From: Terriglobia bacterium
GTDB taxonomy: Bacteria > Acidobacteriota > Terriglobia > 20CM-2-55-15
Direction: 5' to 3'
DNA length: 64,000 nucleotides
Assembly: GCA_965198225.1 (NCBI GenBank)
Contig: CBDAOY010000005.1
Location: forward strand, 384,001 to 448,000
The notes under the pieces are model-generated. The model saw only the letters and a program-made list of their open reading frames with translations. It did no database searches and was not told where the DNA came from. A program made the position numbers and the translations under genes. Each line of letters starts with the position of its first letter. Position 1 is the first letter of the stretch. Below are positions 1,830 to 18,803 of this stretch, in pieces.

Positions 1830-3070
1830 GTGACTGGGAATCGACGTGCGAATAGACGAATCAGGATCGGCCTTCATGCTATCGAAACAGAAATAGTCAG
1901 GCCCGGGCCGCAGGCCAAGGCACGCGATCGCCCGACGCGAGTCTTGCTCGCGGATGACCAGGCCGACGTGCTCACCGCCCTGCGACTGATGTTGAAAGCC
2001 GAGGGTTTCGAAGCGGAGGCGATCTCGGCGCCAGAGGAAATACTTCTGGCGGTGGAGAACGGAGACTTCGACTTGATCCTGATGGACATGAACTACACGC
2101 GAGACACCACGTCCGGCCTGGAAGGGCTGGAACTGCTGGCGCGGTTACAGACCCTCCCGCAGACGCCGCCGGTGGTCGTGATGACGGCATGGGGCAGCAT
2201 CGATCTGGCAGTCGAGGCGATGCGCCGCGGCGCCAGAGATTTTGTCCTCAAGCCCTGGGACAACCAGCGCCTTCTCGCCACGGTCCGGGAACATGCCCGG
2301 GGCGTAGAGCCGATTTCCAAGGACGCACGCGATCGGCAGCAGGGCGCCCGACTGGAGCGGGATCTCAAGATTGCCCGGAAGGTCCAGGGCCAATTGTTCC
2401 CCCGCAACGCACCGCCGCTGGACACTCTCGACTACAGCGCCGAATGCCGCCAGGCTGGAGCTGTCGGAGGCGACTACTACGACTTCCTGGATCTGGGGGA
2501 AGGACGGATGGCCCTGGTCCTGGCCGATGTGTCGGGCAAGGGCGTTGCCGGAGCATTGCTGATGGCCAACCTGCAGGCAACCCTGCGGAGCCAGTCGTCC
2601 AGGGGGCTCGAGGATCTCGGCGGGCTGTCGACGAAGTCAACCGCCTCTTTTACGACACGACCGCGCCCGAGCATTACGCCACGCTGGTCGTGGCGGCCTA
2701 CAACGACCGCACGCGCTCGGTTCGCTACGTCAACTGCGGTCACAATCCGCCCATGATTCTCCGCCGGAACGGTCAACTGGATCGCCTGCCCCCGACAACC
2801 ACGGTTCTTGGTCTGTTTCCGGACTTGGATGGTGACGTCGGCGAGATCACCCTCGATTCGGGAGACACCATGATCGCGTTTTCCGACGGCGTCACCGACG
2901 CGGAAAACGAGAGCGGTCAGCCCTTCGGCGAGGCGCGTTTGCTCGAACTGCTCGAAGAACACGCGCGGGAAGACATCTCTGTTCTGCCATCCCGAATCGC
3001 CGATGCGATTGAGGCCTCCGAGTTCCGCCAGGACGACGACTTGACGGTCGTCGCAGCGCGGGGCCGTTAG
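1830..3070 (+). pseudogene. Response regulator receiver + PP2C/SpoIIE (RsbU-like) phosphatase, frameshifted near 2628
   Basis: Receiver motifs (LLADD, DLILMD, VVMTAW, KPW) and VGGDYYD/ADVSGKG are in ORF 1830..2756. The PP2C C-terminal half (VNCGHNPP, FSDGVTDA, DDDLT) is in the frame ending at 3070. One extra base in gggctg^tcgac restores GLVDEVNRLF. Confidence 0.85.
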
Positions 3071-3173: not shown

Positions 3174-3315
3174 CTATTGCAAATTGGTCATCGGACGAAT
3201 CCACATTGGAAGTTGGAGATCGGAGGTTGCTCAATTTCCTATTGGTCGGATCTGAAATGAAGCAATTTCCAATGAGCAACCTGCAATGCGGACTATTCAA
3301 TATCGCGATTTGCAA
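3174..3315 (+). repeat. AT-richer ~140-150 bp palindromic intergenic element (family B), copy 1
   Basis: Aligns by eye with 43628..43777 and, inverted, with 14514..14581 (shared ccaatgagcaacctgcaatg.gga). Ends form imperfect inverted repeats. Confidence 0.85.
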
Positions 3316-3383: not shown

Positions 3384-4214
3384 GTGCCCATGCGCCGCTC
3401 CCGAACCCGGATCTGGTCGAGTGTATTCCTGACCGTTCTGTTAACTGCCCCCTGGGCCGCTGCCTTCGGACAAAGTGTCCGGTTCCAGGGGGAGCAGATC
3501 GAGCGTTTCCTGGCTGGAGCACTGATCACGGATATGGAGAGCTCCCTTCAAGGCGTGACCCGGCCACGTAAGGCGACATTGGAGCTCGACGGGACGACCC
3601 ACAACGCAGTCTTCAAGAACATCGACGTCTTCAGGCCGGGCGTGACGACTCTGGGGGGAGGGACGGTCGAGATCGACTTTCAGGACAGCTGGAAAACGGA
3701 AGTCGCCGCATATGAACTCGACAAGCTGATCGGGCTGGGCATGGTGCCGGCGACCGTTTCGAGGGTTTACTCTCGACAGCGCGGATCCATGCAATGGTGG
3801 GTCGACAGCATAATGACCGAGTACGATCGAGTGAGCCAGGGCGTGCCGGTTCCGAACGGCGAAGCCTGGAACCGGCAACTCTACAAAGTTCGGCTCTTCG
3901 ACAACCTGATCTACAACGTCGACCGGCACCTGGGCAACGTGCTGATCACAGAAGACTGGCGGGTCTGCCTGATCGATCACTCCAGGACGTTTCGCCGGCG
4001 GACCGAGTTGCGTGCGCCGGACGATCTCAAGCGGTTCTCGAGATCGTTGCTTAGGGCGATCGAGCTCCTGGACGAAGACATATTGAGGGAAACGCTCGGC
4101 GCCTACCTCACCGGCACACAGATCCGGGCGATGCTCGAAAGGCGCGACAAGATACTCGCTCTGGCAAAGGAGAGGGTGCAGGAACAGGGGCAGGAGAGAA
4201 CACTTTATCCGTAG
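3384..4214 (+). CDS. Exported atypical kinase-fold protein (PI3K/PI4K-like), paralog 1
   Basis: Sec-type signal peptide (..LLTAPWAAAFG|Q); beta3 Lys AVFK, alphaC Glu EVAAYELD, catalytic loop DRHLGN, metal-binding IDHS. Confidence 0.8.
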   Translation: MPMRRSRTRIWSSVFLTVLLTAPWAAAFGQSVRFQGEQIERFLAGALITDMESSLQGVTRPRKATLELDGTTHNAVFKNIDVFRPGVTTLGGGTVEIDFQDSWKTEVAAYELDKLIGLGMVPATVSRVYSRQRGSMQWWVDSIMTEYDRVSQGVPVPNGEAWNRQLYKVRLFDNLIYNVDRHLGNVLITEDWRVCLIDHSRTFRRRTELRAPDDLKRFSRSLLRAIELLDEDILRETLGAYLTGTQIRAMLERRDKILALAKERVQEQGQERTLYP

Positions 4215-8055: not shown

Positions 8056-9342
8056 TCACGCCCGGATTTCCGAAGCAAGGATATCGATCGCCTTGTCCAG
8101 TTGACGCGGCATGATGTAGTAGGGACACGAAAAACGGATCGAAGCCTGCTCTCCGTCTCTGCCGTCGGAAATATTGAACCAGACTCGGTGCTCCTTCCAT
8201 ATTGCCTCGCCGCGAGCTCTGAGCTTCTCGATCGGTATCCGCACCTTGACCATCGCGGCCGCCAGGTCCGGCGGTGGACCGCTCATGAATGAAACGTCAC
8301 CCACTTCGTGGATCTTTCGACGGACGTAATTGGCCAGGTATTGATGCCTCTGGTGGATCGTTTCCGGACCGAGCTGTTCGGCAAACTCGATCGCGGTTTC
8401 AAGACCGGCCAGGACGGTCGTGTTCGAGGTTCCGATCGTGCTCAATCGTTCGACGCCGAGTTCGGGCCTGTCCCAATTGCTGGAGACGGTGTGTCCCCAG
8501 AGTCGGTCGGCCATTCCCTGGCGGCAATACAGAAACCCGGTACCTTTGGGAGCGAACAACCATTTGTGCGGGCTGCTGGCGTAGAAATCACAGCCGAGTG
8601 AGTGCATGTCCAGCGGCAACTGTCCCATGGCATGGGCGCCATCGATCACACTGATGATGCCGCGGTCGCGGGCCAGGCGGGATATCTCACGAACCGGCAG
8701 CATCCCCCCCGTCGACGTCGTGATGTGGCTGATGCTGATCACTTTCGTGCGGGGGGTGATCGCGTCCTCGACGGCCTGCAGGATCTCGGCGGGACTCTCA
8801 GGAGGTACAGGTATCTTGAAATAGCGCACCGCGATACCGTAGCGCTTCTCGCGCTGCAGCCACGGACTGCGCCCCCCGGGATGTTCCTGGTCGCTGAGGA
8901 GCACTTCGTCTCCGGCTTCGAGTTCCAAACCAGTCCCGACCGTGTTCATCCCCTCCGTGGCGTTCCGCGTCAGAGCGATTTCGTCGGGATCCGCACCCAC
9001 GAACGCTGCAATCTTGGTGCGCGTATTCAGCGTCGTGTTGGCATACCCCCACCACGGGTAGGTATTGAATTCGCGATCCTCGAAGCTCTCCGTGTCGTGC
9101 AGATGGCGAATCATACGATCGACGACCGGACGCGGCGATATTCCCAGGCTTCCGTTGTTGAGGTAGATCACGTCTTCGGGGTGTGAGAACTGCCCTCGCA
9201 CGACCTCCCAGAATCGCTCGTCCTGCGGCAGCGCACCGGGACGAGGCGTCGCTCCGAGCGGCTCTCCCAGTGCGCCGAGCGCTGTCGTCGCTGGGAGCGC
9301 AGTCGTCGCTCCCACCAGAGACAAAAAGTGTCGACGGTCCAT
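8056..9342 (-). CDS. Tat-exported class V PLP-dependent enzyme (isopenicillin N epimerase/cysteine desulfhydrase-like)
   Basis: MDRRHFL twin-arginine signal; YLNNGS, EHP, DGAH, SPHKWL PLP lysine. Confidence 0.88.
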   Translation of the reverse strand: MDRRHFLSLVGATTALPATTALGALGEPLGATPRPGALPQDERFWEVVRGQFSHPEDVIYLNNGSLGISPRPVVDRMIRHLHDTESFEDREFNTYPWWGYANTTLNTRTKIAAFVGADPDEIALTRNATEGMNTVGTGLELEAGDEVLLSDQEHPGGRSPWLQREKRYGIAVRYFKIPVPPESPAEILQAVEDAITPRTKVISISHITTSTGGMLPVREISRLARDRGIISVIDGAHAMGQLPLDMHSLGCDFYASSPHKWLFAPKGTGFLYCRQGMADRLWGHTVSSNWDRPELGVERLSTIGTSNTTVLAGLETAIEFAEQLGPETIHQRHQYLANYVRRKIHEVGDVSFMSGPPPDLAAAMVKVRIPIEKLRARGEAIWKEHRVWFNISDGRDGEQASIRFSCPYYIMPRQLDKAIDILASEIRA

Positions 9343-9527: not shown

Positions 9528-9556
9528 TTGACACCCTACCCCGCCCTCCCTACCAT
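9528..9556 (+). promoter_or_regulatory. Sigma70-type promoter of the kinase-phosphatase-translocase operon
   Basis: TTGACA-17 nt-TACCAT; RBS AAGGAG precedes ATG 9627. Confidence 0.65.
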
Positions 9557-9626
9557 GCAGGCAACCGTATCTCAGTGACAGAAAAGGATGTACGGGTCGA
9601 TGTCGGCTCGCAAGGAGATCCCCTCC

Positions 9627-10448
9627 ATGAATAGTACGAACTGCCGCATGAGAACCCTACTGGCGCTTCTGGCGTTGGGCCCGATCGCCTCCTGGACCAG
9701 CGCCCAGGAGGGCGTGAAGTTCCAGGGGCCGGAGATCGAGCAGTTCATGGCCGAAGCCTCGATCACGGGGATGGTCGACATCGGAGAGGGCGTCACGCGA
9801 CCGCAGAAGGCGACGCTGGAACTTGACGGGGAAACGCAACACGGCGTTTTCAAAACCGTCGACATCTTCCGCGAAGGTATGACGAGGGTCGGCGACACCA
9901 TGGAGATGAACTTCCAGGATAGCTACAAGACCGAGATCGCGGCTTATGAAATCGATCGCCTGATCGGGCTCGGTATGGTGCCGACAACGCTGGAGAGGTC
10001 GTACCGCGGGGATATGGGATCTCTGCAATGGTGGGTCGAGAGCGAAATGTCGGAGGCCGACAGGGCACAGGGCCGCATCCTGCCGCCGGACCGCCAGAGC
10101 TGGGGTCGGATGATGTCGAAGGTCCGGCTCTTCGACAGCCTGATCTACAACACGGACCGCCATCAACGGAACATCCGGATCACGAAGGACTGGATCATCG
10201 TCCTGATCGATCATTCACGTGCCTTCCGTACCGAAAAGGAGTTGCGAGAGCCTGAGCGGATCACGCTATTCTCCAGGTCGTTGCTGGAGAATATTGCTAG
10301 ACTGGACGAAGATACGTTGAAGGACCGTGTCGGAAGGCACCTGACGATCTTTCAGATCCGAGCCGTGCTGGCCCGACGTGATCTTCTACTCGAACGAGCC
10401 AAAGAACTGGTCGCCGAACGGGGAGAGGAAAGGGTCCTTTTCCCCTGA
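9627..10448 (+). CDS. Exported atypical kinase-fold protein (PI3K/PI4K-like), paralog 2
   Basis: Signal peptide (MRTLLALLALGPIASWTSA|QE); GVFK, EIAAYEID, DRHQRN, IDHSRAF; collinear with 3384..4214. Confidence 0.82.
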   Translation: MNSTNCRMRTLLALLALGPIASWTSAQEGVKFQGPEIEQFMAEASITGMVDIGEGVTRPQKATLELDGETQHGVFKTVDIFREGMTRVGDTMEMNFQDSYKTEIAAYEIDRLIGLGMVPTTLERSYRGDMGSLQWWVESEMSEADRAQGRILPPDRQSWGRMMSKVRLFDSLIYNTDRHQRNIRITKDWIIVLIDHSRAFRTEKELREPERITLFSRSLLENIARLDEDTLKDRVGRHLTIFQIRAVLARRDLLLERAKELVAERGEERVLFP

Positions 10449-10465
10449 CGGAAGTCAAAGATTGA

Positions 10466-11725
10466 ATGGTTCTTAGATCCCTAACGAAACGCGATCTCGG
10501 CCGAACCCCGCTGGCGGTCCTGCTGCTTCTGGCACTGGCGTCGGTCGTCTTTTCCGGTGTCCTTGCCGGCGAACGCATCGTGTCGATGGCCGACATCCAC
10601 GGCAATTACGCTTCGGCAACCGCGCTTCTGCGAAAGACCGGCCTGATCGACGACGAAGCGCGGTGGGTCGGCGGCAAGACCACGTTTGTCCAGACCGGAG
10701 ACTATACCGACCGGGGTCCCGAGGTACGACGGGTGATGGACCTCCTGATGGATCTCGAAGAACAGGCGCAGAAGGCTGGTGGGCGAGCTGTCGTCCTGAT
10801 CGGCAACCACGAGATCATGAATATCATCGGCGAGTTGGTGGACGTCACAGAGGCCGACTACGCCAGCTTCGTCGACTCGCGATCCGAAGACCGACGGCAA
10901 GACGCTTATGAAGACTTCCTGAAGTTCGAGAAGCGCCGCGCGGAAAAGCTCGACCTGCCCTCACCAGCGCCCACGCCCGAAACCGAAGCCGCCTGGATGG
11001 CGGCGCATCCGCCGGGGTTCGTCGAACACCGCGAAGCATTCTCCTCGAAAGGCCGGTACGGGAAATGGTTGCGCGAACTTCCGGTCATTGCGAAAGAAGA
11101 AGACGTCATCTTCATGCATGCCGGCATCAACCCGCTTCTGTCCGAGATTTCGATCAAAGACCTCAACGCGCGAGTTCAGGAAGAACTCCGGGCTTTCGAC
11201 CAGTACAAGCAATACCTGGTCGATCGAGAACTGGCCCTCCCTTTCTTCACGCTGGGGGAACTGATCCGAGCGACGCAGGATGATCTCGAGAAGAGGCGAG
11301 CGCGCATCGCACGAGAGACGGCGGCGGAGGAGGAGGACGGGAAGACCTACTCTCCGCCCCGCGACGAGCAAAACCATATGAACGTGCTCGAAACCATCCT
11401 CGGGATGGGCAGCTGGCTGATCATCCATGAAGACGGCGTGCTCTGGTACCGGGGGTTTGCGCAGTGGAACGAAGTCGAGGGCGCCGCCGGTATCGAAAAA
11501 CTTCTCGACGCGTACGACGCCGATCATTTTGTCGTCGGACATACGCCGCAGGTTGGCGGACGCATACAGTCCCGCTTCGACGGCAAAATATTCCTGGCGG
11601 ATACCGGTATGCTGTCGAGCGTGTACCGCGGCGGCCAAGCCTCGGCGCTGGAATTCCAGGATGGCGCAATTCGGGCGATCTACCTGGATCGGGACCCCGT
11701 ACAGCTATATCCTTCCGCCCACTAG
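10466..11725 (+). CDS. Exported calcineurin-like metallophosphoesterase, Shewanella-like PPP phosphatase type
   Basis: Signal peptide (..VVFSGVLA|GE); DIHG, GDYTDRG, GNHE, HAG, GHT, DTG motifs. Confidence 0.88.
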   Translation: MVLRSLTKRDLGRTPLAVLLLLALASVVFSGVLAGERIVSMADIHGNYASATALLRKTGLIDDEARWVGGKTTFVQTGDYTDRGPEVRRVMDLLMDLEEQAQKAGGRAVVLIGNHEIMNIIGELVDVTEADYASFVDSRSEDRRQDAYEDFLKFEKRRAEKLDLPSPAPTPETEAAWMAAHPPGFVEHREAFSSKGRYGKWLRELPVIAKEEDVIFMHAGINPLLSEISIKDLNARVQEELRAFDQYKQYLVDRELALPFFTLGELIRATQDDLEKRRARIARETAAEEEDGKTYSPPRDEQNHMNVLETILGMGSWLIIHEDGVLWYRGFAQWNEVEGAAGIEKLLDAYDADHFVVGHTPQVGGRIQSRFDGKIFLADTGMLSSVYRGGQASALEFQDGAIRAIYLDRDPVQLYPSAH

Positions 11726-11740
11726 CGTCCCCGATCATTC

Positions 11741-14503
11741 ATGTCGCACTGGGTTGAACGACTGTTGAACTTGCGCCGTGGCGACCTGGCCCGCGGCATC
11801 CTCTTCTTTGCCTATTACTTCCTGATCGTCGCGAGCTACGTGGTCGGCAAGATCGGCCGAGATGCTCTTTTTCTGGACCGGTTCGCGCCGGATCAGCTTC
11901 CCTACGTCGACATATCCATCGCCGTGTTGGTGGGCTTCGTCATCGCAGCCTACATCCGTGCCGGCCACCGGGTCGGAATGCACAAACTGTTGACCGGAAG
12001 CTTGATCTCCTTCGCAGGCATCGCGGTCTTCTTCTGGTGGGCGTTCATCAGCTTCCGATGGGACTGGCTCTTCCCGGCGCTCTATATCTGGGTCGGTATC
12101 TTCGGTGTACTTGCCATCACGCAGGTGTGGACTCTGGCCAACTTCATGTTGACCACACGCGAGGCCAAGCGCCTGTTCGGCCTGGTCGGCAGCGGGGGGA
12201 TCCTCGGCGGTATTTTCGGGGGCTTCATATCGAACTCCACGGCGCGTAACCTCGGGACTGAGAGCCTGCTGCTGGTCCTGGCGCTGTTCCTCGGCATCTG
12301 CGTCGTCCTGGTGCTGCTGATCTGGCGACAACACCAGGCCGAGGTCCCGGAAGACGAGCCTCTGGTGCCGATCGCCGAAGGTCCGCGAAACTTGTTCGAG
12401 AGCTTTCGGTTGATGCTGTCCTCGCGGCACCTCACCTCGATCGCCGCTCTGATATGCGTGACGTCGATCGTCACGACCGCGGCCGGGTGGCAGTTCAAGG
12501 CCATAGCGAAGGAAACGATTGTCGAAACGGATGCGCTCGCCGCATTCTTCGGTTCGTTTCAGGGGTACGCCGGCGCTCTCTCGCTTGCAGCTCAGCTGTT
12601 GCTGACCTCGCGTATTCTCCAACGGTTCGGCGTGGGACTCGCACTGTTCATCCTGCCCGTGACGCTGACGCTGGGTTCAGCAGGTGTCCTCGTTTTTGGC
12701 GGCATCTGGGCGGCCACGTTCCTCAAGGGAAGCGACAATGTCCTGCGGTATTCGATCGACACTTCCGCCCTCCAACTGCTCTACCTGCCGGTTCCGTCGT
12801 CCGTCAAGATGCAGGTCAAATCGTTGATCGATACCGTCATCTGGAGGTTCGGGGACGGGTTCGCAGGTCTTACTCTGCTGGTGTTCGCGACCTTCCTGAA
12901 CTTCACGCCGAGTCAGATCAGCTGGGTCAACCTGGTTTTCCTCGGCCTCTGGTTTGTCCTCGCCGACATCGCACGCCGGCAATATGTCGCGACTCTTGGA
13001 GAACGGATCCAGGAGCATCGCATCGACGCCGAGAGCGCCGCCGCACCCGTCCTCGACAGATCGACTACGTCGATCATGGCTTCCAAGCTGGATTCGGCAG
13101 ACACCGAGGAGATCCTCTACGGATTGAGCCTGTTCGAAGTGGGGTACCACCAGACGTCCCATCCATCGATGCGAGGGCTCATCAAACACCCCTCGCCCGA
13201 AGTCCGTGCGAAGGCCCTGGCGATCTTGAACGCTGGGGGGGACCGATCGGTGGCTGACGACGTGGAAGAACTGCTGAGGGACGACGACCTCCAGGTCCGT
13301 ACCGAGGCCTTACTCTACCTCGCCCATCACTCGCACATCGACCCCGTCGCGCGCATTCAGGAGATCGTCGACTTTCCGGAGCACACGGTTCGTTCATCGA
13401 TCGCCGCGTTTCTGGCTCGCCCGGGAAATGCCCAGAACCTCGAAGTATCTCGGATGATGCTGGACATGATGATCGACGAAGCGGGACCCGACGGAAAACA
13501 GGTACGGCTGGAGGCGGCGCGGCTGATCGGGACGATGCCTGAGGATTTCGAAGAACAGCTGGCACGCTCGCTGCGCGACAAAGACCCGGAAATCGCCCGC
13601 GAAGCGATCCAGGCAGCCGGCCGACTCGGGAAACGTCGGTTCGTGCCGGACCTGCTCGAGCATTTGTCGGTTCCCGACTGTCGGGAATCGGCCACGGAAT
13701 CTCTGGCTGGGTTCGGCAATCGGATTCTCGGAACACTCCGGGACTACATGGCCGATGAAGAGATCCCGATAGAGGTCCGGCGCCAGATCCCAATGGTTAT
13801 GGTCGTCCTCGGCAGCGAAGAGGCCCAGGCTCTGCTGGTCGAAAACCTGTTCCAGGGTAACTCCGAGTTGCGATTCCGGATCATCTCCGCACTCAACAAG
13901 TTTCGAAACGGCCACCCCGAGATCAGGCTCGACACTCAGATGGTCGAGACGGTACTGGCGGCAGAGATCCTCGGACACTACCGGTCCTACCAGGGCCTGG
14001 GCGCGCTGGCCGGAAAACTCGATCGCGAAGACCCTGCCATGCGGGCGCTCGCGGAGTCGATCGACCAGGAGGTGGAACGAATCTTCCGGCTGCTCGGAAT
14101 ACTGTTCCCCAAACACGACCTCCACGCGGCGCATATCGGGCTTCGTGCCGGTGACTCCGTCGTTCACGACAACGTGCTGGAGTTCCTCGACAACACGCTG
14201 CGGCCCGAGTTGAGAGAGCTGTTGGTTCCGTTGGTCGACAGCGGAATTCGGCTCGAGGAACGTGTCCGTCGCGCCGACGCCCTGCTTGGCACCAGGGTGG
14301 AAACGTCCGAAGAGGCCGTCTCGATGCTGATCCACAGCGGCGATCCGTGGTTGCGTTCTTGCGCTGCATACGCGATTGGCGCCCTCGGACTCCGATCGAT
14401 GGAAGCGGAGTTGGAGGCCTGGGAAAATGACCCGGACCCGTTGCTGGTCGAAACGGTGCGGCAGGCCAGGGAAAAGCTGTCTACGGGCGCAGCGGGGGAC
14501 TAG
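11741..14503 (+). CDS. NTT/TLC (ATP:ADP antiporter family) transporter fused to HEAT repeats
   Basis: About 12 TM N-terminal domain with K..RDALFL, Q.WT.AN, REAKRLFG, RYSID...LYLP, K..IDT...RFGD; C-terminal HEAT-like repeats (P.PEVR..AL, D.D..VR.EA). Confidence 0.85.
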   Translation: MSHWVERLLNLRRGDLARGILFFAYYFLIVASYVVGKIGRDALFLDRFAPDQLPYVDISIAVLVGFVIAAYIRAGHRVGMHKLLTGSLISFAGIAVFFWWAFISFRWDWLFPALYIWVGIFGVLAITQVWTLANFMLTTREAKRLFGLVGSGGILGGIFGGFISNSTARNLGTESLLLVLALFLGICVVLVLLIWRQHQAEVPEDEPLVPIAEGPRNLFESFRLMLSSRHLTSIAALICVTSIVTTAAGWQFKAIAKETIVETDALAAFFGSFQGYAGALSLAAQLLLTSRILQRFGVGLALFILPVTLTLGSAGVLVFGGIWAATFLKGSDNVLRYSIDTSALQLLYLPVPSSVKMQVKSLIDTVIWRFGDGFAGLTLLVFATFLNFTPSQISWVNLVFLGLWFVLADIARRQYVATLGERIQEHRIDAESAAAPVLDRSTTSIMASKLDSADTEEILYGLSLFEVGYHQTSHPSMRGLIKHPSPEVRAKALAILNAGGDRSVADDVEELLRDDDLQVRTEALLYLAHHSHIDPVARIQEIVDFPEHTVRSSIAAFLARPGNAQNLEVSRMMLDMMIDEAGPDGKQVRLEAARLIGTMPEDFEEQLARSLRDKDPEIAREAIQAAGRLGKRRFVPDLLEHLSVPDCRESATESLAGFGNRILGTLRDYMADEEIPIEVRRQIPMVMVVLGSEEAQALLVENLFQGNSELRFRIISALNKFRNGHPEIRLDTQMVETVLAAEILGHYRSYQGLGALAGKLDREDPAMRALAESIDQEVERIFRLLGILFPKHDLHAAHIGLRAGDSVVHDNVLEFLDNTLRPELRELLVPLVDSGIRLEERVRRADALLGTRVETSEEAVSMLIHSGDPWLRSCAAYAIGALGLRSMEAELEAWENDPDPLLVETVRQAREKLSTGAAGD

Positions 14504-14513
14504 GTAAGTCCGA

Positions 14514-14581
14514 TTGCAAATCGCGATATTTGAGTAATCCGCATTGCAGGTTGCTCATTGGAGATTGCTTCATTTCAAATC
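14514..14581 (-). repeat. Family B element, partial inverted copy 2
   Basis: Reverse complement matches the 3' half of 3174..3315. Confidence 0.85.
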
Positions 14582-14622: not shown

Positions 14623-15591
14623 ATGCGATGCCGATTGTTTCTGATCACGCTGACCGTGCTGGTCGCCCTCAGCCTCGTGATCACCCCCGCGTCGAGAGGC
14701 CAGATGGGCCACATGAACAAGGTGGTCGACCTGCTCGAAAGCGGTCAGTCGATTTTTGGATCCTTCTCGGGATCACACGACGCGGCGGGCGCGGCGCAGA
14801 CGATCCAGAACCGGGATCTGGACTTCGTCTTCTACTCGATGGAAGCTCTCGGGCAGTACAACATCCCCAACCTCCGGGCGTTCATCCAGTTCATGAACGT
14901 GGCGGGCGTGATGGAGAACCGGTACGACATCCGCACGGAGTATCCGCTGCTGGTTCGGATTCCGCCGCTCGAGGACGACCGCGCGGCAGGTCCGCGGCGG
15001 GTGGGAGAGGTTCTCAACGCGGGGGCGCACGGCGTCGTCTTCCCACAGCTCAACTCCCCGGAAGATGCGAAGCTGGCGATCGATTCGATGAGGTACTCGG
15101 AGCTGCGCCAGACGCCGCAGGCTCGAGGACGCGGGGGTCGAGGCCGCGGAGGTCGAGGCGGACGTGGCGGGCGGGGAGCGGTCGCGCCGACGCCGATTCC
15201 AGCGGCTTCCTACTGGGGAATGTCCCAGGAAGAATACAGGGAACGCGCCGACGTCTGGCCCATCAACCCCAACGGTGAGTTGGTAAACATGTTTCTCATC
15301 GAAAACCAGGAGGGCATCGGGCACGCGAGGGAGATCGTTCGGACGCCGGGTGTCAGCATCGCTGTTCCCGGTCCAGGCGACCTCCGCCAGGCATACGAGG
15401 GCGACATGGAAGCGGTCGAGAATGCCATCCAGACGGTACTGGCAGCCTGCAAGGAGTTCGACGTCGCGTGCGGCATCACGGCGAATACGAATGACATCGA
15501 ACGGCGCCTATCTGAAGGTTTCCGGGTGATCATCGCCAACGCGGAAGCGAACCGCCTCGGGATGCGGGCGGCGGGACGACGAGACGACTAG
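14623..15591 (+). CDS. HpcH/HpaI aldolase/citrate lyase-family protein with signal peptide and RGG insert
   Basis: LLVRIP, GAHGVVFP, FLIEN.EG, GPGDL; hydrophobic N-terminus; RBS AAGGAGG. Confidence 0.82.
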   Translation: MRCRLFLITLTVLVALSLVITPASRGQMGHMNKVVDLLESGQSIFGSFSGSHDAAGAAQTIQNRDLDFVFYSMEALGQYNIPNLRAFIQFMNVAGVMENRYDIRTEYPLLVRIPPLEDDRAAGPRRVGEVLNAGAHGVVFPQLNSPEDAKLAIDSMRYSELRQTPQARGRGGRGRGGRGGRGGRGAVAPTPIPAASYWGMSQEEYRERADVWPINPNGELVNMFLIENQEGIGHAREIVRTPGVSIAVPGPGDLRQAYEGDMEAVENAIQTVLAACKEFDVACGITANTNDIERRLSEGFRVIIANAEANRLGMRAAGRRDD

Positions 15592-15733: not shown

Positions 15734-15765
15734 CGACCAACGGACAACCAACAACGGCCTACGTC

Positions 15766-18635
15766 CTAACGCTCCCTCGCCAGATCCGCCTCCGCCGCGA
15801 TGAAGCCGAACGCGGCCCATTGTGAACCCTTAACGATCGTCTCCAGGACTTCCTGCGCGCGTTCGGGCTGCCCGTTGGCCCGGTACCAGCTCGCGACGGC
15901 GTAGCCGTAGGTTGCACTCGCCAGACCGCCGGCAGTCGTGGCGAGCAGGTCCGATGCTTCCTTCTCGCCCTTGTAGACCAGCAGTCGATCCAGGTATGCG
16001 GTATTTTCGATGACCTGGATGTCGGCGTGGATCGGACGCAGGATCTGCTCCGCGTCCTCGCTGCGGCCGAGCGCGTCAGTGCCAGGTAGAGCCAGTCCGT
16101 CGACGCGACCAGCCTGTCGTTGCTCCCGAGTCCGGAGAACTTCAGACACTCGCGAAAGCTCCGTTCAGCTTCCTGGAAGTCACCTTGGAAGTAGTAGGCC
16201 AAACCCAGGTGATACCAGATGTTGAAATGAGACGTGCTCACCGGTGTGTTCTCGGCGTTCGGCAACCCATCGGGCTCGACCTCGTCGGGCACGCCGGCGA
16301 TCAGCGTGGTCGCGAGTTCCAGGTCCGCAGCGGCTTTGTCGAACTGACGTGTCGTCAGGTAGCGGTGCCCGCGATGCCGCAGCAGTTTGTAACTGTCGGG
16401 ATGCTTATCGATCCCGCGCGAATAGACAGCGATGGCATCCCGATAACGGCCCAGGTAGGCCATGCGCCGTCCGACCCAGATGATCCTCTCTTCGTCCTCC
16501 GGATCCAGCGCAAACTCCGCGGTCGCGGCATTGAGGTTGTCTTCGAATCTCTTTCGGGTATCGACGTCCAGGACGACCGGAAAGAGAGGTACGCCGAGCA
16601 ACGATGTGGCCTCTGGGGTTCTTCCCTTCTCCTCGTTCGAGGTCACCTTCTCCGGCCGCAAAAACCGGTCGTACCACGCGATGTACCGGTTGTAGCGGTC
16701 CACCTGGTAGCTGGGCTTCCGGATACCGTGATTCTGACCGGGATAGATCACCAACTCGGTTTCCCGGCCGAGTCTCCGCAACGCCTGGTACATCTGCTCG
16801 GAGTTCAGAGTCGGCACGTTCATGTCTTCCGCACCGCCCATCAACAGGGTCGGCGTCACGATCTCGTCGACCCGGAACCATGGCGAGATCTTCATCCAGA
16901 GATCGGTGTTCCGCCACGGAAGACCGAGTTCGGCTTCCCACTGGCGCTGGTAGTGGTCGGTCCCGTAGTTCGACAGGTAGTTCACCTCGCTTGCACCCGA
17001 GATCGCGGCCTTGAAACGAGCGGTTTGCGTGATGACATAGTTGGTGAGGATGCCGCCGTAACTCCACCCCCCGACACCCAGGCGATCCGGATCCCCAACG
17101 CCCATTTCGATCGCTCGGTCGAGGGCCGACATCACATCCTGGAAGTCCTTGTTGCCCCAATCGGCCCAGATGGCGTAGCTGAAGTCGCGGCCGTAGCCGG
17201 AGGATCCCCGCGGGTTGGCGGCCACCACGGCATACCCCTGGGCGGCGAGGATCTGCCATTCCACATTGAACGCCGGGGTGAACTGCGAAACCGGACCGCC
17301 GTGAATGCGCAGAAGCAGCGGAAGCCTCTCTCCCTCGGGCGCGTCCGCCGGCCGCGTCAGGAAGGCATCGATCATGGTTCCGTCGGCGCTTCTGGCACGA
17401 ATCCGTTCAACGTCACCGAGTTGGATACCTTCCAGGAACTGGTCGTTCGCACGAGAGATCCGCTCGAGCAAACCGTCTTCGACGCGAGAAACTTCATAGG
17501 GCTGGTGGGGCTGGCTCTGGAGGACAATCGTTTCCCCTCCTGCGGCCATGTCGAACTGACGGATGCTCAACTCGCCGTCGATGACTCGTTCGACATCGCC
17601 GCCTGCGACCGGGACTCGTGCGAGATGGTTGTTCCCGCCGTCCTCCAGCAGAAAGTAGATCCATTCGCCCGATGGATCGAACCGAGGGCGGCGCCCGTTT
17701 CGATCCAGTTCCAGCGTCAACGCCCTGCTGGACGAGCCGTCCAAAGAGACGACGGCCAGGTGGCTGACCGCGTACCAGATGTCTTCCGGGGCCCCTCCGG
17801 CAACGTAGACAATGGATTGACCGTCGGGGCTGAACGCGGGTGACGAATCGGTGCCCGGCGATGTGGTCAGCGCGCGGGGGGGCTGGCCGGGGACGGCACG
17901 CACGATGAAGATGTCGTTGTTGGCGTTGGAATCCGGCTCCTCTGTGCGGTTGCTGACAAAGGCCACCCATTCTCCGTCGGGCGACCAGACGGGACTGGAG
18001 TCGTCATAGGGTCCGTCGGTAATCTGCGTGGGTTCCTTTTCTTCGATGTCGAAGACGTAGATGTGGCGACGACGCTCGTCAAGATACCCCTGTCCATCCC
18101 GCTTGAACTGCAACCGGCGGACGACGATGGGGTCCTCGGCTTTGTCCTCCTCCTCCTCCTCCTCGTCGGCGGCATCCGGATCCTCGTCGCGGATGATCAG
18201 CGCCAGACGGCCGCCGTCGGGCGACCAGGTGAAGCCGGAAACACCGGGCTTGATGTCGGTGAGCTTCTTCGCCTCCCCTCCACGTCGGTCCAGCAGCCAT
18301 ACCTGATTGGTGTCGCCTTCCCGACCGGACAGAAACGCCAGGTATCGGCCGTCGGGGCTCCATCGCGGAGAATTCTCGCTCTTCGGGCTCGATGTCACCT
18401 GAAGCGTGTCCTCGCCGTCGAGCGACACCATGTAGATGTCGGTGTCCGAGTTGTCTTCCTGGGAATTCATCTGTGAGACCGTGTAGGCGACCCACCGGGC
18501 GTCGGGGCTGATACGCGGGTCGCCGACCGTCTTCAGCTCGAAGATGTCGTCGACCGACATCAGTCGTCTCTCCTGAGCCCCAAGAGCGGTCGCCAGCAGC
18601 AGCGCGAAGGTCACGGACAGGGCACTTCGTTTCAT
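15766..18635 (-). CDS. Exported S9 family peptidase (beta-propeller + hydrolase) fused to a TPR domain; 1-bp frameshift near 16071
   Basis: Signal peptide MKRSAL..; repeated WSPDG; IHGGP, GWSYGG, D.NVP, HG. The TPR C-terminus continues in the 15766..16149 frame (LGRSEDAEQIL..FIAAEADL). Confidence 0.88.
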
Positions 18636-18803
18636 GCTCACCTCTGGTAGAAAAAGCGGTTCAGCCCTGAAACCTAGCGTGTTTCCAGCCAGGAAGCCAA
18701 CGTTTTCCGACCGTTTCAGAGTTGTGATAATCTCCCGTTTGAGCACCACGATGCCGGCGGAGATCGACGCAACAGGCAGGACACACCGAGGGGGTACATC
18801 GTA

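Follow-up and report, generated by a model that had tools for sequence, protein, structure and literature searches.

Three adjacent genes in the 64,000-nucleotide stretch of Terriglobia DNA that was analyzed (the window) encode a small kinase-fold protein (K, gene g1), a PPP-family metallophosphatase (P, g2) and a transporter related to ATP/ADP translocators (T, g3), and the linkage of K, P and T is far above chance. Each of the three falls into a known superfamily; what would be new is the system, and its novelty hinges on a confirmed direction of transport. The combination suggests that ATP is fed into the space outside the inner membrane, in which case this module would represent one copy of a conserved Acidobacteriota set for phosphorylation outside the cytoplasm. 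Our literature search found no published account of a K-P-T system.

The three genes and their products

The locus comprises three co-directional open reading frames on the + strand (9588-10448, 10466-11725 and 11741-14503) with intergenic gaps of 17 and 15 nt, as tightly spaced as the initial annotation had described them. Its further claim that one promoter precedes them is weakly founded, because a scan for sigma-70-like sequences returned 2 matches in the region when 1.1 were expected. The features are as follows.

9528-9556, + strand: weak sigma-70-like promoter match, TTGACA-17-TACCAT, 10 of 12 consensus positions
9588-10448, + strand: K (g1), small kinase-fold protein, predicted exported; longest ORF 286 aa, likely start ATG 9627 (273 aa)
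9627-9704, + strand: predicted Sec signal peptide of K, MNSTNCRMR / TLLALLALGPIASW / TSA-QE, read off the sequence
10466-11725, + strand: P (g2), Shewanella-like (Shelph) PPP-family metallophosphatase, predicted exported, 419 aa; from the Metallophos profile, solved relatives and motif positions
10466-10567, + strand: predicted signal peptide of P, K/R n-region, PLAVLLLLALASVVF, VLA-GE, read off the sequence
11741-13042, + strand: transporter domain of T (g3, 920 aa), 12-helix NTT/TLC-family; from the TLC profile, phmmer, AF2 and Foldseek
13058-14503, + strand: C-terminal HEAT-repeat domain of T, probably cytoplasmic; HEAT_2 E=7.2e-24
3384-4214, + strand: second, stand-alone K paralogue, 276 aa, 55% identity to g1

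RNA-library contigs identical to parts of g1 and g2 also exist, with DNA carry-over a possible source.

The longest g1 frame, from 9588, has 286 residues. As a correction to the initial annotation, the start has been moved to the likely ATG at 9627, because AAGGAG lies 9 nt upstream of it and the resulting 273 residues equal the length of homologues. The kinase motifs that had been called intact were all located by script (VFK at 87-89, EIAAYE at 116-121, DRHQRN at 190-195 and IDHSR at 207-211); all 25 aligned K sequences share K89, D190, R191, N195, D208 and H209, but the histidine of DRHxxN (H192) is no constant of the family, in which DRQSRN, DRNATN and DRTARN also occur. The complete Lys/Glu/Asp/Asn/Asp set is present in all 25 stand-alone K proteins. 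With Pfam, g1 stays below the cut-off of every kinase family, including PI3_PI4_kinase (17.8 bits, cut-off 27.1), Fam20C (PF06702; 16.4 bits, cut-off 26.8) and HipA_2 (15.4 bits, cut-off 27), and against the SCO1664 family TIGR03843 it scores 39.1 bits, below the cut-off of 172.4. Membership in the PI3K/PI4K catalytic-domain family (PF00454) was rejected on its score and on the variability of H192, and membership in Fam20 by sequence was likewise rejected, though the fold matches.

Judged by its AF2 model (pLDDT 84.7), K is a protein of Fam20C/PI4K-II-like kinase fold whose catalysis is putative. The best Foldseek matches are Fam20C, a hydra Fam20 and PI4K-II alpha (E ~2e-7, TM by query 0.53-0.61), so that the kinase fold expected from the motifs is recovered; model and alignment together contain the fold, Lys/Glu pair, catalytic Asp, Asn and metal-binding Asp of Fam20-type kinases. 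The animal secretory-pathway kinases Fam20C and Fam20B (5yh0, 5xoo, 4kqb; TM by query 0.57-0.61 at the same E) also resemble K in having a signal sequence, and they act outside the cytosol in a compartment that needs an ATP supply. K differs from them in that its mature form, at ~230 residues, is roughly half their size, cysteine-free, bacterial and below the Pfam Fam20C threshold. The second structural group, the type II phosphatidylinositol 4-kinases (4hnd, 4pla), has a DRxxxN-type loop and a D-H metal-binding motif like those of K, but these are cytosolic lipid kinases, and K departs from them in its Pfam score and in the variable histidine.

P matches Pfam Metallophos at E=4.2e-12, and each of the PPP/Shewanella-like phosphatase motifs attributed to it was found by script: ADIHG at 42-46, GDYTDRG at 78-84, GNHE at 113-116, HAG at 218-220 and GHT at 358-360, that is, the PPP set GDxHG, GDxxDRG, GNHE, H(A/G)G and GH with the first glycine replaced by alanine. 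Among solved structures, the closest to P are protein-tyrosine phosphatases from Shewanella (2z72, 1v73 and 2zbm; E ~1e-26), while Rhilph 5vjv reaches just E 2e-4. P shares with Shelph (1v73, 2z72) the PPP metal-binding motifs and an insert between GNHE and HAG, of ~100 residues in P, which is given as a Shelph trait in the available portion of Andreeva and Kutuzov 2004 (PMC535813). Unlike Shelph, P has extra inserts (419 versus 342 aa) and ADIHG in place of GDxHG and, unlike Shelph as described in that portion (PMC535813), it has a kinase-fold domain as genetic neighbor or fusion partner.

The description of g3 as an NTT/TLC-family transporter with HEAT repeats is borne out. It scores 54.7 bits against Pfam TLC (PF03219; cut-off 21, E=1e-14, profile positions 137-372 of 491), and its 53.3 bits against NCBIfam superfamily TIGR00769, below the cut-off of 387.2, mark it as a distant NTT; phmmer aligns residues 107-441 with AtNTT1 9j3j (E=4.5e-14). 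The AF2 model (pLDDT 78.5) has 6+6 helices, and Foldseek ranks 1-4 are NTT1 structures, from AtNTT1 and C. pneumoniae NTT1 (E 7e-10 to 1e-7, TM by target 0.60-0.73), with MFS transporters next at E of at least 5.6e-6. The residues of the NTT signature show no variation across the 13 sequences compared. Like plastid and chlamydial NTT1 (9j3j, 9j3l, 9j3m, 9j3n, 9j3o), its closest solved structures, T has 12 helices and the signatures W..AN and EAKR, but identity is just 16-17% and T carries in addition a HEAT domain of 480 residues. NTT1 proteins, moreover, bring ATP into the plastid or the parasite; T, in the role proposed here, would have to export it. The HEAT domain is probably cytoplasmic, because an even number of helices precedes it and the N-terminus holds 4 K/R.

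An NTT domain followed by PF13646/PF02985 HEAT repeats is exactly the architecture of the NTT-HEAT fusions which, together with NTT-HEAT-cNBD fusions, were treated by Major, Embley and Williams in 2017 (PMC5381601); some K-linked relatives of T likewise bear an extra cyclic-nucleotide-binding (cNMP_binding) domain. In the accessible sections of that paper, NTT-HEAT fusions are reported as monophyletic, uncharacterized and widespread in free-living bacteria, including phyla such as cyanobacteria, and those sections discuss ATP uptake or exchange between cells rather than the supply of periplasmic enzymes and mention no kinase or phosphatase neighbors.

The N-termini of g1 and g2 each consist of a charged stretch, a hydrophobic stretch of 14-15 residues and a small-x-small site (TSA-QE and VLA-GE), and the signal peptides noted initially recur as signal-peptide-like N-termini throughout both families: a hydrophobic N-terminal segment is found in 40/40 K ORFs and 24/25 P ORFs versus 196/631 control ORFs, as judged by eye and by a rough hydrophobicity criterion, which 31% of the control ORFs satisfy too. 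If this segment were instead an uncleaved anchor, K and P would work on the cytoplasmic face, and the HEAT domain of T could scaffold the PPP phosphatase as the A subunit of PP2A scaffolds its catalytic subunit. The pairing of a PPP enzyme with HEAT repeats is indeed the logic of PP2A, Foldseek matches the HEAT domain of T with PP2A A subunits at low score (E ~1.5e-5, TM 0.19-0.29), and mature K and mature P have zero cysteines and hence no disulfides pointing to an oxidizing compartment. We nevertheless hold this arrangement to be very improbable. Any HEAT repeat protein resembles PP2A-A; fused P-K proteins retain one such N-terminus; and most homologues combine a positive n-region and a 14-15 residue h-region with a small-x-small site (AQ, GAQ, SAQ, A-GE), a pattern that speaks for a cleaved Sec signal peptide with the domain outside. 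On these sequence features, K and P are predicted to be exported from the cytoplasm.

Linkage, fusion and co-occurrence of K, P and T

The kinase-phosphatase-NTT linkage that the initial annotation had marked for survey is found phylum-wide, both as K-P-NTT clusters and as P-K fusions. With this result, all the refuting conditions set by the initial annotation that a computation can address have turned out in its favor. With 6 kb as the limit of distance, 35 of 80 K loci have P nearby, 36 have T and 28 have the two together; 53 of the loci are flanked by 5 kb or more on each side, and for these the corresponding numbers are 26, 24 and 21. Since the source genome (6.4 Mb) has 1 P and 5 TLC-like genes, 4 of the latter away from K, adjacency by chance would be on the order of 1%. 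K-linked loci display at least 3 gene orders and three T architectures, namely NTT-HEAT, NTT-HEAT-cNBD and NTT alone. The last is found in P>K>T>K>K loci, where the T that sits between K genes measures 465-483 aa and consists of the NTT part without HEAT repeats, which identifies the transport domain as the conserved partner of K.

Ten or more loci encode P and K as a fusion protein with one signal peptide in front, and in most cases an NTT-HEAT gene is next to it. Nine of these come from a selected sample of 14 regions chosen for long frames, each of the nine having a single ORF with signal peptide, P and K, and locus L080 has another such ORF. Of 11 regions with a full or partial P-K fusion, 9 also contain a g3-like ORF within that stretch, and PF00149 is detected in 4/5 longer K homologues. 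The phosphatase motifs DxHG, GDxxDRG and GNHE are kept in 10/10 full fusions (the 9 long-frame regions and L080). The putative ATP-binding (beta3) lysine, by contrast with the stand-alone proteins, is R or H in 7/12 fused proteins; in 3 of these 7 the partner glutamate is altered too, such that E116 covaries with K89 in fusions. The catalytic loop is missing from one fused copy, so there may be pseudokinases among the K domains.

At the level of whole genomes, K occurs in 75, TLC in 114 and P in 70 of 301 members of the phylum. TLC is present in 75/75 K-bearing genomes versus 39/226 genomes without K; 69/301 genomes have both K and P, and 69/301 have K, P and T, although these counts overstate independence because genomes of one phylum are related. 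The 39 genomes with TLC and no K, and the wide distribution of NTT-HEAT proteins in other phyla, imply that T has roles independent of K. One could argue that the adjacency is chance or a lineage artefact with no functional meaning, given that a single phylum was sampled and that the families concerned have T more often than K. We find this scarcely credible, because the linkage persists through several rearrangements and three T architectures, P-K fusions are present, and in family f3, where K, TLC and P each occur in 1/22 genomes, all three coincide in one genome (G075) with the genes adjacent.

A candidate ATP-driven cycle and its alternatives

We infer that T carries adenine nucleotides, with ATP moving outward, and that K acts as a kinase, in a closed cycle whose chances we would place a little short of even. 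T, as an inner-membrane relative of the plastid and chlamydial ATP/ADP translocators, would send cytoplasmic ATP out and take periplasmic ADP and phosphate in; K would then move the gamma-phosphate onto an envelope or extracellular substrate, releasing ADP; P would strip the phosphate off again, releasing Pi; and ADP and Pi would return through T. K and P would reach their site of action via Sec signal peptides, in many genomes as one exported P-K polypeptide, and the cytoplasmic HEAT domain, in some relatives together with the cyclic-nucleotide-binding domain, would probably gate T. A joint return of ADP and Pi would agree with an NTT1 entry titled 'ADP/Pi bound'. ATP is, however, small enough to leak through typical outer-membrane porins, which counts against such a cycle.

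A broader proposition, conceivable if rather doubtful, is that the NTT-HEAT proteins of free-living bacteria are regulated ATP exporters that energize the periplasm. In Acidobacteriota they would feed Fam20-like exported kinases and, with the Shelph phosphatase, sustain an ATP-driven cycle on envelope or extracellular substrates, in which ADP and Pi would be regained stoichiometrically through the same transporter and the flux would be set by cytoplasmic signals (HEAT partners, cyclic nucleotides).

Alternatively, K, P and T could form one unit with K and P exported, while T exports no ATP. Its role might be to take up something that K and P produce (a salvaged nucleotide or phosphorylated metabolite), or to carry another anionic cofactor (NAD, S-adenosylmethionine or a nucleotide sugar) for non-phosphorylation chemistry by the kinase-fold protein; kinase and metallophosphatase might also process extracellular nucleic-acid ends, as does polynucleotide kinase-phosphatase. 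Periplasmic Metallophos nucleotidases are well known, P weakly matches TIGR04075, the phosphatase part of bacterial Pnkp (E=5.4e-4), and the beta3 lysine is often replaced in fused K domains. Furthermore, as far as the available text of PMC5381601 goes, characterized NTTs are nucleotide importers, and some members of the family carry NAD or S-adenosylmethionine. We still consider this alternative unlikely, since an exported kinase-fold enzyme needs a nucleotide donor, the source of which import leaves unexplained; stand-alone K proteins keep the full catalytic set; the nearest structures of T are ATP/ADP exchangers; and the cell makes its own purines (PurH).

Because the genome encodes PurH and the ATP synthase gamma subunit, energy parasitism is not needed. 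The initial annotation's 'apparently free-living' is uncertain, in that sequencing runs whose labels name host organisms contain near-identical DNA, as does a metatranscriptome with the label 'sponge metagenome'.

Finally, T might serve as a sensor or 'transceptor' which, through its HEAT domain and sometimes a cNBD, informs the cytoplasm about periplasmic nucleotides or the condition of the envelope, with K and P obtaining their phosphoryl donor from elsewhere. This would accord with a non-transport part that makes up more than half of T, with the cNBD variants at K-linked loci and with the STAS and HATPase_c_2 partner-switching genes that adjoin the cluster in Aminicenantes-type loci. The HEAT-less NTT embedded in P>K>T>K>K loci and the invariance of the NTT signature residues speak against it, and we regard regulatory coupling of this kind as improbable.

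Relation to known phosphorylation outside the cytoplasm

In the textbook view the periplasm is without ATP, and known periplasmic phosphorylation uses other donors; LpxT, for example, employs undecaprenyl pyrophosphate instead of ATP, which is the accepted way round the absence of periplasmic ATP. Like the proposed ATP-exporting module, LpxT works at the periplasmic face of the inner membrane, where it attaches phosphate to lipid A in a reaction tied to undecaprenyl phosphate synthesis, according to the part of PMC2229476 that was available.

If the ATP-export reading is true, a dedicated and regulated ATP/ADP exchanger serving exported kinases would overturn the view of an ATP-free periplasm. 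It would also assign a function to the NTT-HEAT proteins, uncharacterized since 2017, and to at least 3,250 kinase-fold proteins, and would provide a bacterial counterpart to the non-cytosolic phosphorylation known from the animal Golgi. Even without ATP export, the conserved triad and the P-K fusions would make up an envelope module not described before, in a phylum that is prominent in soils and sediments.

The K family, with at least 3,250 proteins that lack annotation, reaches up to 8 or more copies per Acidobacteriota genome. The paralogue at 3384-4214 of the window has a signal-peptide-like N-terminus and the motifs FK, DRHLGN and IDHSR.

Products and layout of the three-gene cluster

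The initial annotation placed three closely packed genes on one strand, and its observations were confirmed overall, the ORF listing giving gaps of 17 nt (g1-g2) and 15 nt (g2-g3):

9588-10448, + strand: g1, ORF for the predicted exported kinase-fold protein (K)
10466-11725, + strand: g2, ORF for the predicted exported Shewanella-like PPP phosphatase (P)
11741-14503, + strand: g3, ORF for the NTT/TLC-family transporter with HEAT repeats (T)

The likely start of g1 is the ATG at 9627, which has an AAGGAG 9 nt upstream and yields a 273-aa product, the length of its homologues. Upstream lie 245 nt of intergenic DNA and then a gene on the opposite strand. A sigma-70-like match does occur at 9528-9556 (+), where a single promoter had been proposed, but the region contains 2 such matches against 1.1 expected, which argues only weakly for a single promoter. 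A terminator scan 3' of g3 gave no convincing candidate. All the protein motifs listed by the annotation were located by script.

K has Pfam and NCBIfam matches only below cut-off, the weak ones being PI3_PI4_kinase, Fam20C, HipA_2 and TIGR03843. In an AlphaFold2 model with 25 homologues as input (mean pLDDT 84.7) the kinase fold is recovered, the best PDB matches being zebrafish Fam20C, hydra Fam20 and human PI4K-II alpha (E about 2e-7 to 5e-7; TM by query 0.53-0.61). K89, D190, R191, N195, D208 and H209 are invariant in the alignment of 25 sequences; the DRHxxN loop noted earlier is present in g1, but its H192 varies across the same set. Of 7,028 candidates, 3,250 proteins fall within the family at E<=0.001, hardly any of them named. 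An atlas search labels the family mostly Acidobacteriota, with one hit suggesting a related cluster from Myxococcota. A search of a Fam20 review (PMC7948968) turned up nothing on relatives in bacteria or on how the lumen is supplied with ATP.

P is a Metallophos protein by Pfam, and its assignment as a Shewanella-like phosphatase holds: the cold-active protein-tyrosine phosphatases of Shewanella are the nearest proteins of solved structure (E about 1e-26), and the stretch from GNHE to HAG contains the Shelph-type insert. The N-termini of both K and P, composed of a charged stretch, 14-15 hydrophobic residues and a small-x-small site, look like Sec signal peptides. Among ORFs whose conserved motif was found after the N-terminus, a 10-residue window of strong hydrophobicity directly preceded that motif in 40/40 for K and 24/25 for P, by a crude rule that 196 of 631 other ORFs also pass.

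T scores above the TLC cut-off and also matches HEAT_2 (Pfam), as annotated, and is a distant relative of the NTTs; residues 107-441 align with Arabidopsis NTT1 at E=4.5e-14. Its model (pLDDT 78.5) has 6+6 membrane helices followed by the HEAT repeats, and its top four PDB matches are the Arabidopsis and Chlamydia pneumoniae ATP/ADP translocators (E 7e-10 to 1e-7) in ATP-bound, ADP/Pi-bound and apo states, the next transporters being SPNS2, G6PT1 and PiPT, from 5.6e-6. Since the helix count is even and the N-terminus is K/R-rich, we infer a cytoplasmic HEAT domain, which fits the presence of a cyclic-nucleotide-binding domain on K-linked relatives of T. NTT-HEAT and NTT-HEAT-cNBD fusions were described as uncharacterised in 2017, and the available part of that paper does not mention kinase or phosphatase neighbours (Major et al., PMC5381601).

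Linkage, fusion and co-occurrence in other genomes

With one genome scanned for each species, 513 relatives of K came up, the best 80 loci of which were analysed by tblastn because greedy ORF calling had merged or lost some genes in GC-rich loci. P lies within 6 kb of K in 35 of these 80 loci, T in 36 and both in 28; for the 53 loci with at least 5 kb on each side the corresponding counts are 26, 24 and 21. The linkage is thus conserved in other genomes, the named taxa being Terriglobia, Vicinamibacterales, Solibacteraceae, Thermoanaerobaculia and Aminicenantes. The present genome has 1 P and 5 TLC-like genes in 6.4 Mb, and chance adjacency would be around 1%. At least three gene orders occur: that of the window, K>P>T; T>K><P, where T is an NTT-HEAT-cNBD protein of about 1,210-1,270 aa; and <T ... 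P>K>T>K>K, whose inner T is an NTT domain alone (465-483 aa). No further gene was consistently linked to the three at the K loci analysed.

Fusions also exist. At one locus (L080), a single 621-aa ORF encodes a signal peptide together with P and a domain resembling K. Fourteen regions picked for a long frame around the K match, and hence a biased sample, contain 9 full P-K fusions (617-899 aa) and 2 partial ones, with a g3-like ORF in the same stretch in 9 of these 11. P always comes first, and there is one N-terminal hydrophobic segment. Among proteins of the collection searched, five K homologues longer than K itself were found (E<=1e-10); four of them carry PF00149, and none of the five is a K-T fusion, which is weak evidence of absence.

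A dependence of K on T predicts TLC genes in the genomes that carry K, and the same 301 genomes of the phylum were searched for each gene. K was found in 75 (E<=1e-10), TLC in 114 (E<=0.001; 110 over the cut-off) and P in 70 (E<=1e-25). TLC is present in 75/75 genomes with K versus 39/226 without K, a count that includes the unpublished G049; these genomes are related rather than independent, and the same families have T more often than K. In 69 genomes K is accompanied by P, and all three genes likewise coincide in 69; a single genome has P without K, and six have K without P, three of them 91%, 83% and 68% complete. The cleanest case is one family of 22 genomes (f3), in which K, TLC and P each occur once, all in the same genome, where a P-K fusion adjoins an NTT-HEAT gene. 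Taken together, the data show that the predicted exported kinase-fold protein, the predicted exported phosphatase and the NTT-type transporter form one functional unit.

A possible ATP-export cycle

The interpretation offered initially, a periplasmic kinase and phosphatase pair supplied with exported ATP, is partly supported: linkage, folds and N-termini speak for it, whereas ATP export itself is something we infer. In the proposed cycle, T would move cytoplasmic ATP out in exchange for periplasmic ADP plus Pi; K would use the ATP and generate ADP, P would release Pi, and both products would be the return cargo of T, thus closing the books. ADP and Pi as return cargo fit the title, 'ADP/Pi bound', of one NTT1 entry among the structural matches of T. 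NTTs exchange ATP for ADP plus Pi, and the bacterial cytoplasm would here take the role that the matrix has for the mitochondrial ADP/ATP carrier. The genome encodes its own purine synthesis and an ATP synthase, which argues against energy parasitism. We give this cycle slightly less than an even chance.

Several points count against ATP export. T is a distant NTT whose cargo and direction are only predicted, and in fused K domains the beta3 lysine is changed to R or H in 7/12, with E116 also changed in 3 of those 7 and the catalytic loop lost in one copy; T and K may instead have a different cargo or chemistry, a reading to be set against the ATP/ADP translocators that head the structural matches of T. 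NTT-HEAT proteins are also widespread without K. The role of T could, alternatively, be purely regulatory. ATP could, moreover, leak out via porins. Finally, with the HEAT domain on the cytoplasmic side, a PP2A-like arrangement in the cytoplasm is conceivable, against which stand the signal-peptide-like N-termini of K and P.

Metatranscriptomic library contigs that match g1 and g2 without mismatch over 189, 249 and 212 nt hint at expression, although DNA carry-over is possible; the RNA-library run X14 has no contig on g3, which says nothing about its silence.

We regard the arrangement of K, P and T as new at the level of the system; each part belongs or is related to a known superfamily. The literature searched, mostly outside subscription journals, contained no paper that couples an exported kinase to an NTT. 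The phosphate donor of LpxT is a lipid. LpxT is known from the literature on periplasmic phosphorylation (PMC2229476, available in part), and the periplasmic-ATP question is live because of a preprint, likewise available in part, on a periplasm-targeted ATP-dependent ligase (10.64898/2026.03.22.713542).

Paralogues, neighbouring genes and repeats

The genome has six copies of K, only one beside P and T; a second, stand-alone paralogue lies at 3384-4214. Judged by eye, the neighbourhoods of the genome's four remaining TLC-like genes contain no exported kinase-like gene. One Acidobacteriota genome has a near-canonical TLC gene (G212:C54:24385-25833; Pfam model E=4.6e-173), whereas the K-linked transporters are distant.

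Recurrent neighbours at K loci (Pfam) are ABC transporter parts, a Sortilin/BNR protein, PilZ, STAS, HATPase_c_2 and deoxyhypusine synthase, none of them a candidate substrate. STAS and HATPase_c_2 (partner-switching) genes adjoin K genes in Aminicenantes-type clusters (L054, L071, L074, L076, L077, L080). A single K gene forms part of a long co-directional operon at L052, L058, L061 and loci like them, along with genes for a Sortilin/BNR protein, PilZ, an ABC ATPase, an ABC-2 permease, an ABC_transp_aux protein, DUF4340 and deoxyhypusine synthase. The L055 contig, titled Hydrothermarchaeota archaeon, has the same tandem K genes and scores as the Aminicenantia contig L054, probably through mis-binning.

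Divergent from g1, a class-V aminotransferase gene at 8056-9342 (-) (Pfam E=2e-50) has a twin-arginine-like N-terminus (MDRRHFLSL...), which suggests a Tat-exported PLP enzyme; its pairing with g1 is not among the recurrent neighbours of K loci. Two overlapping ORFs within 1830-3070 (1830-2756 and 2189-3070, +) look by eye like the receiver domain of a response regulator and, after it, a PP2C/SpoIIE-type phosphatase, split across frames, and may reflect a frameshift or sequencing error.

A repeat of about 65 nt just downstream of g3 (14511-14581) has 64 further blastn matches, which are spread over 8 of the genome's contigs and include the copy at 3253-3315, shortly before the second K paralogue. 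It shows modest folding only (z = -1.98), and DNA-run contigs break at it, depth changing from 18 to 279. An HpcH/HpaI aldolase-like gene follows at 14623-15591 (+); its product is hydrophobic at the N-terminus and contains an arginine-glycine repeat insert (RGRGGRGRGGRGG...). The S9 peptidase gene at 15759-18749 (-), with PD40 and TPR repeats, ends in about 130 R/S-rich residues, apparently out of frame, and may be frameshifted; an overlapping ORF (15766-16149) reads like its true C-terminus. S9-like ORFs occur in 26/81 loci, which may merely mirror the commonness of the family.
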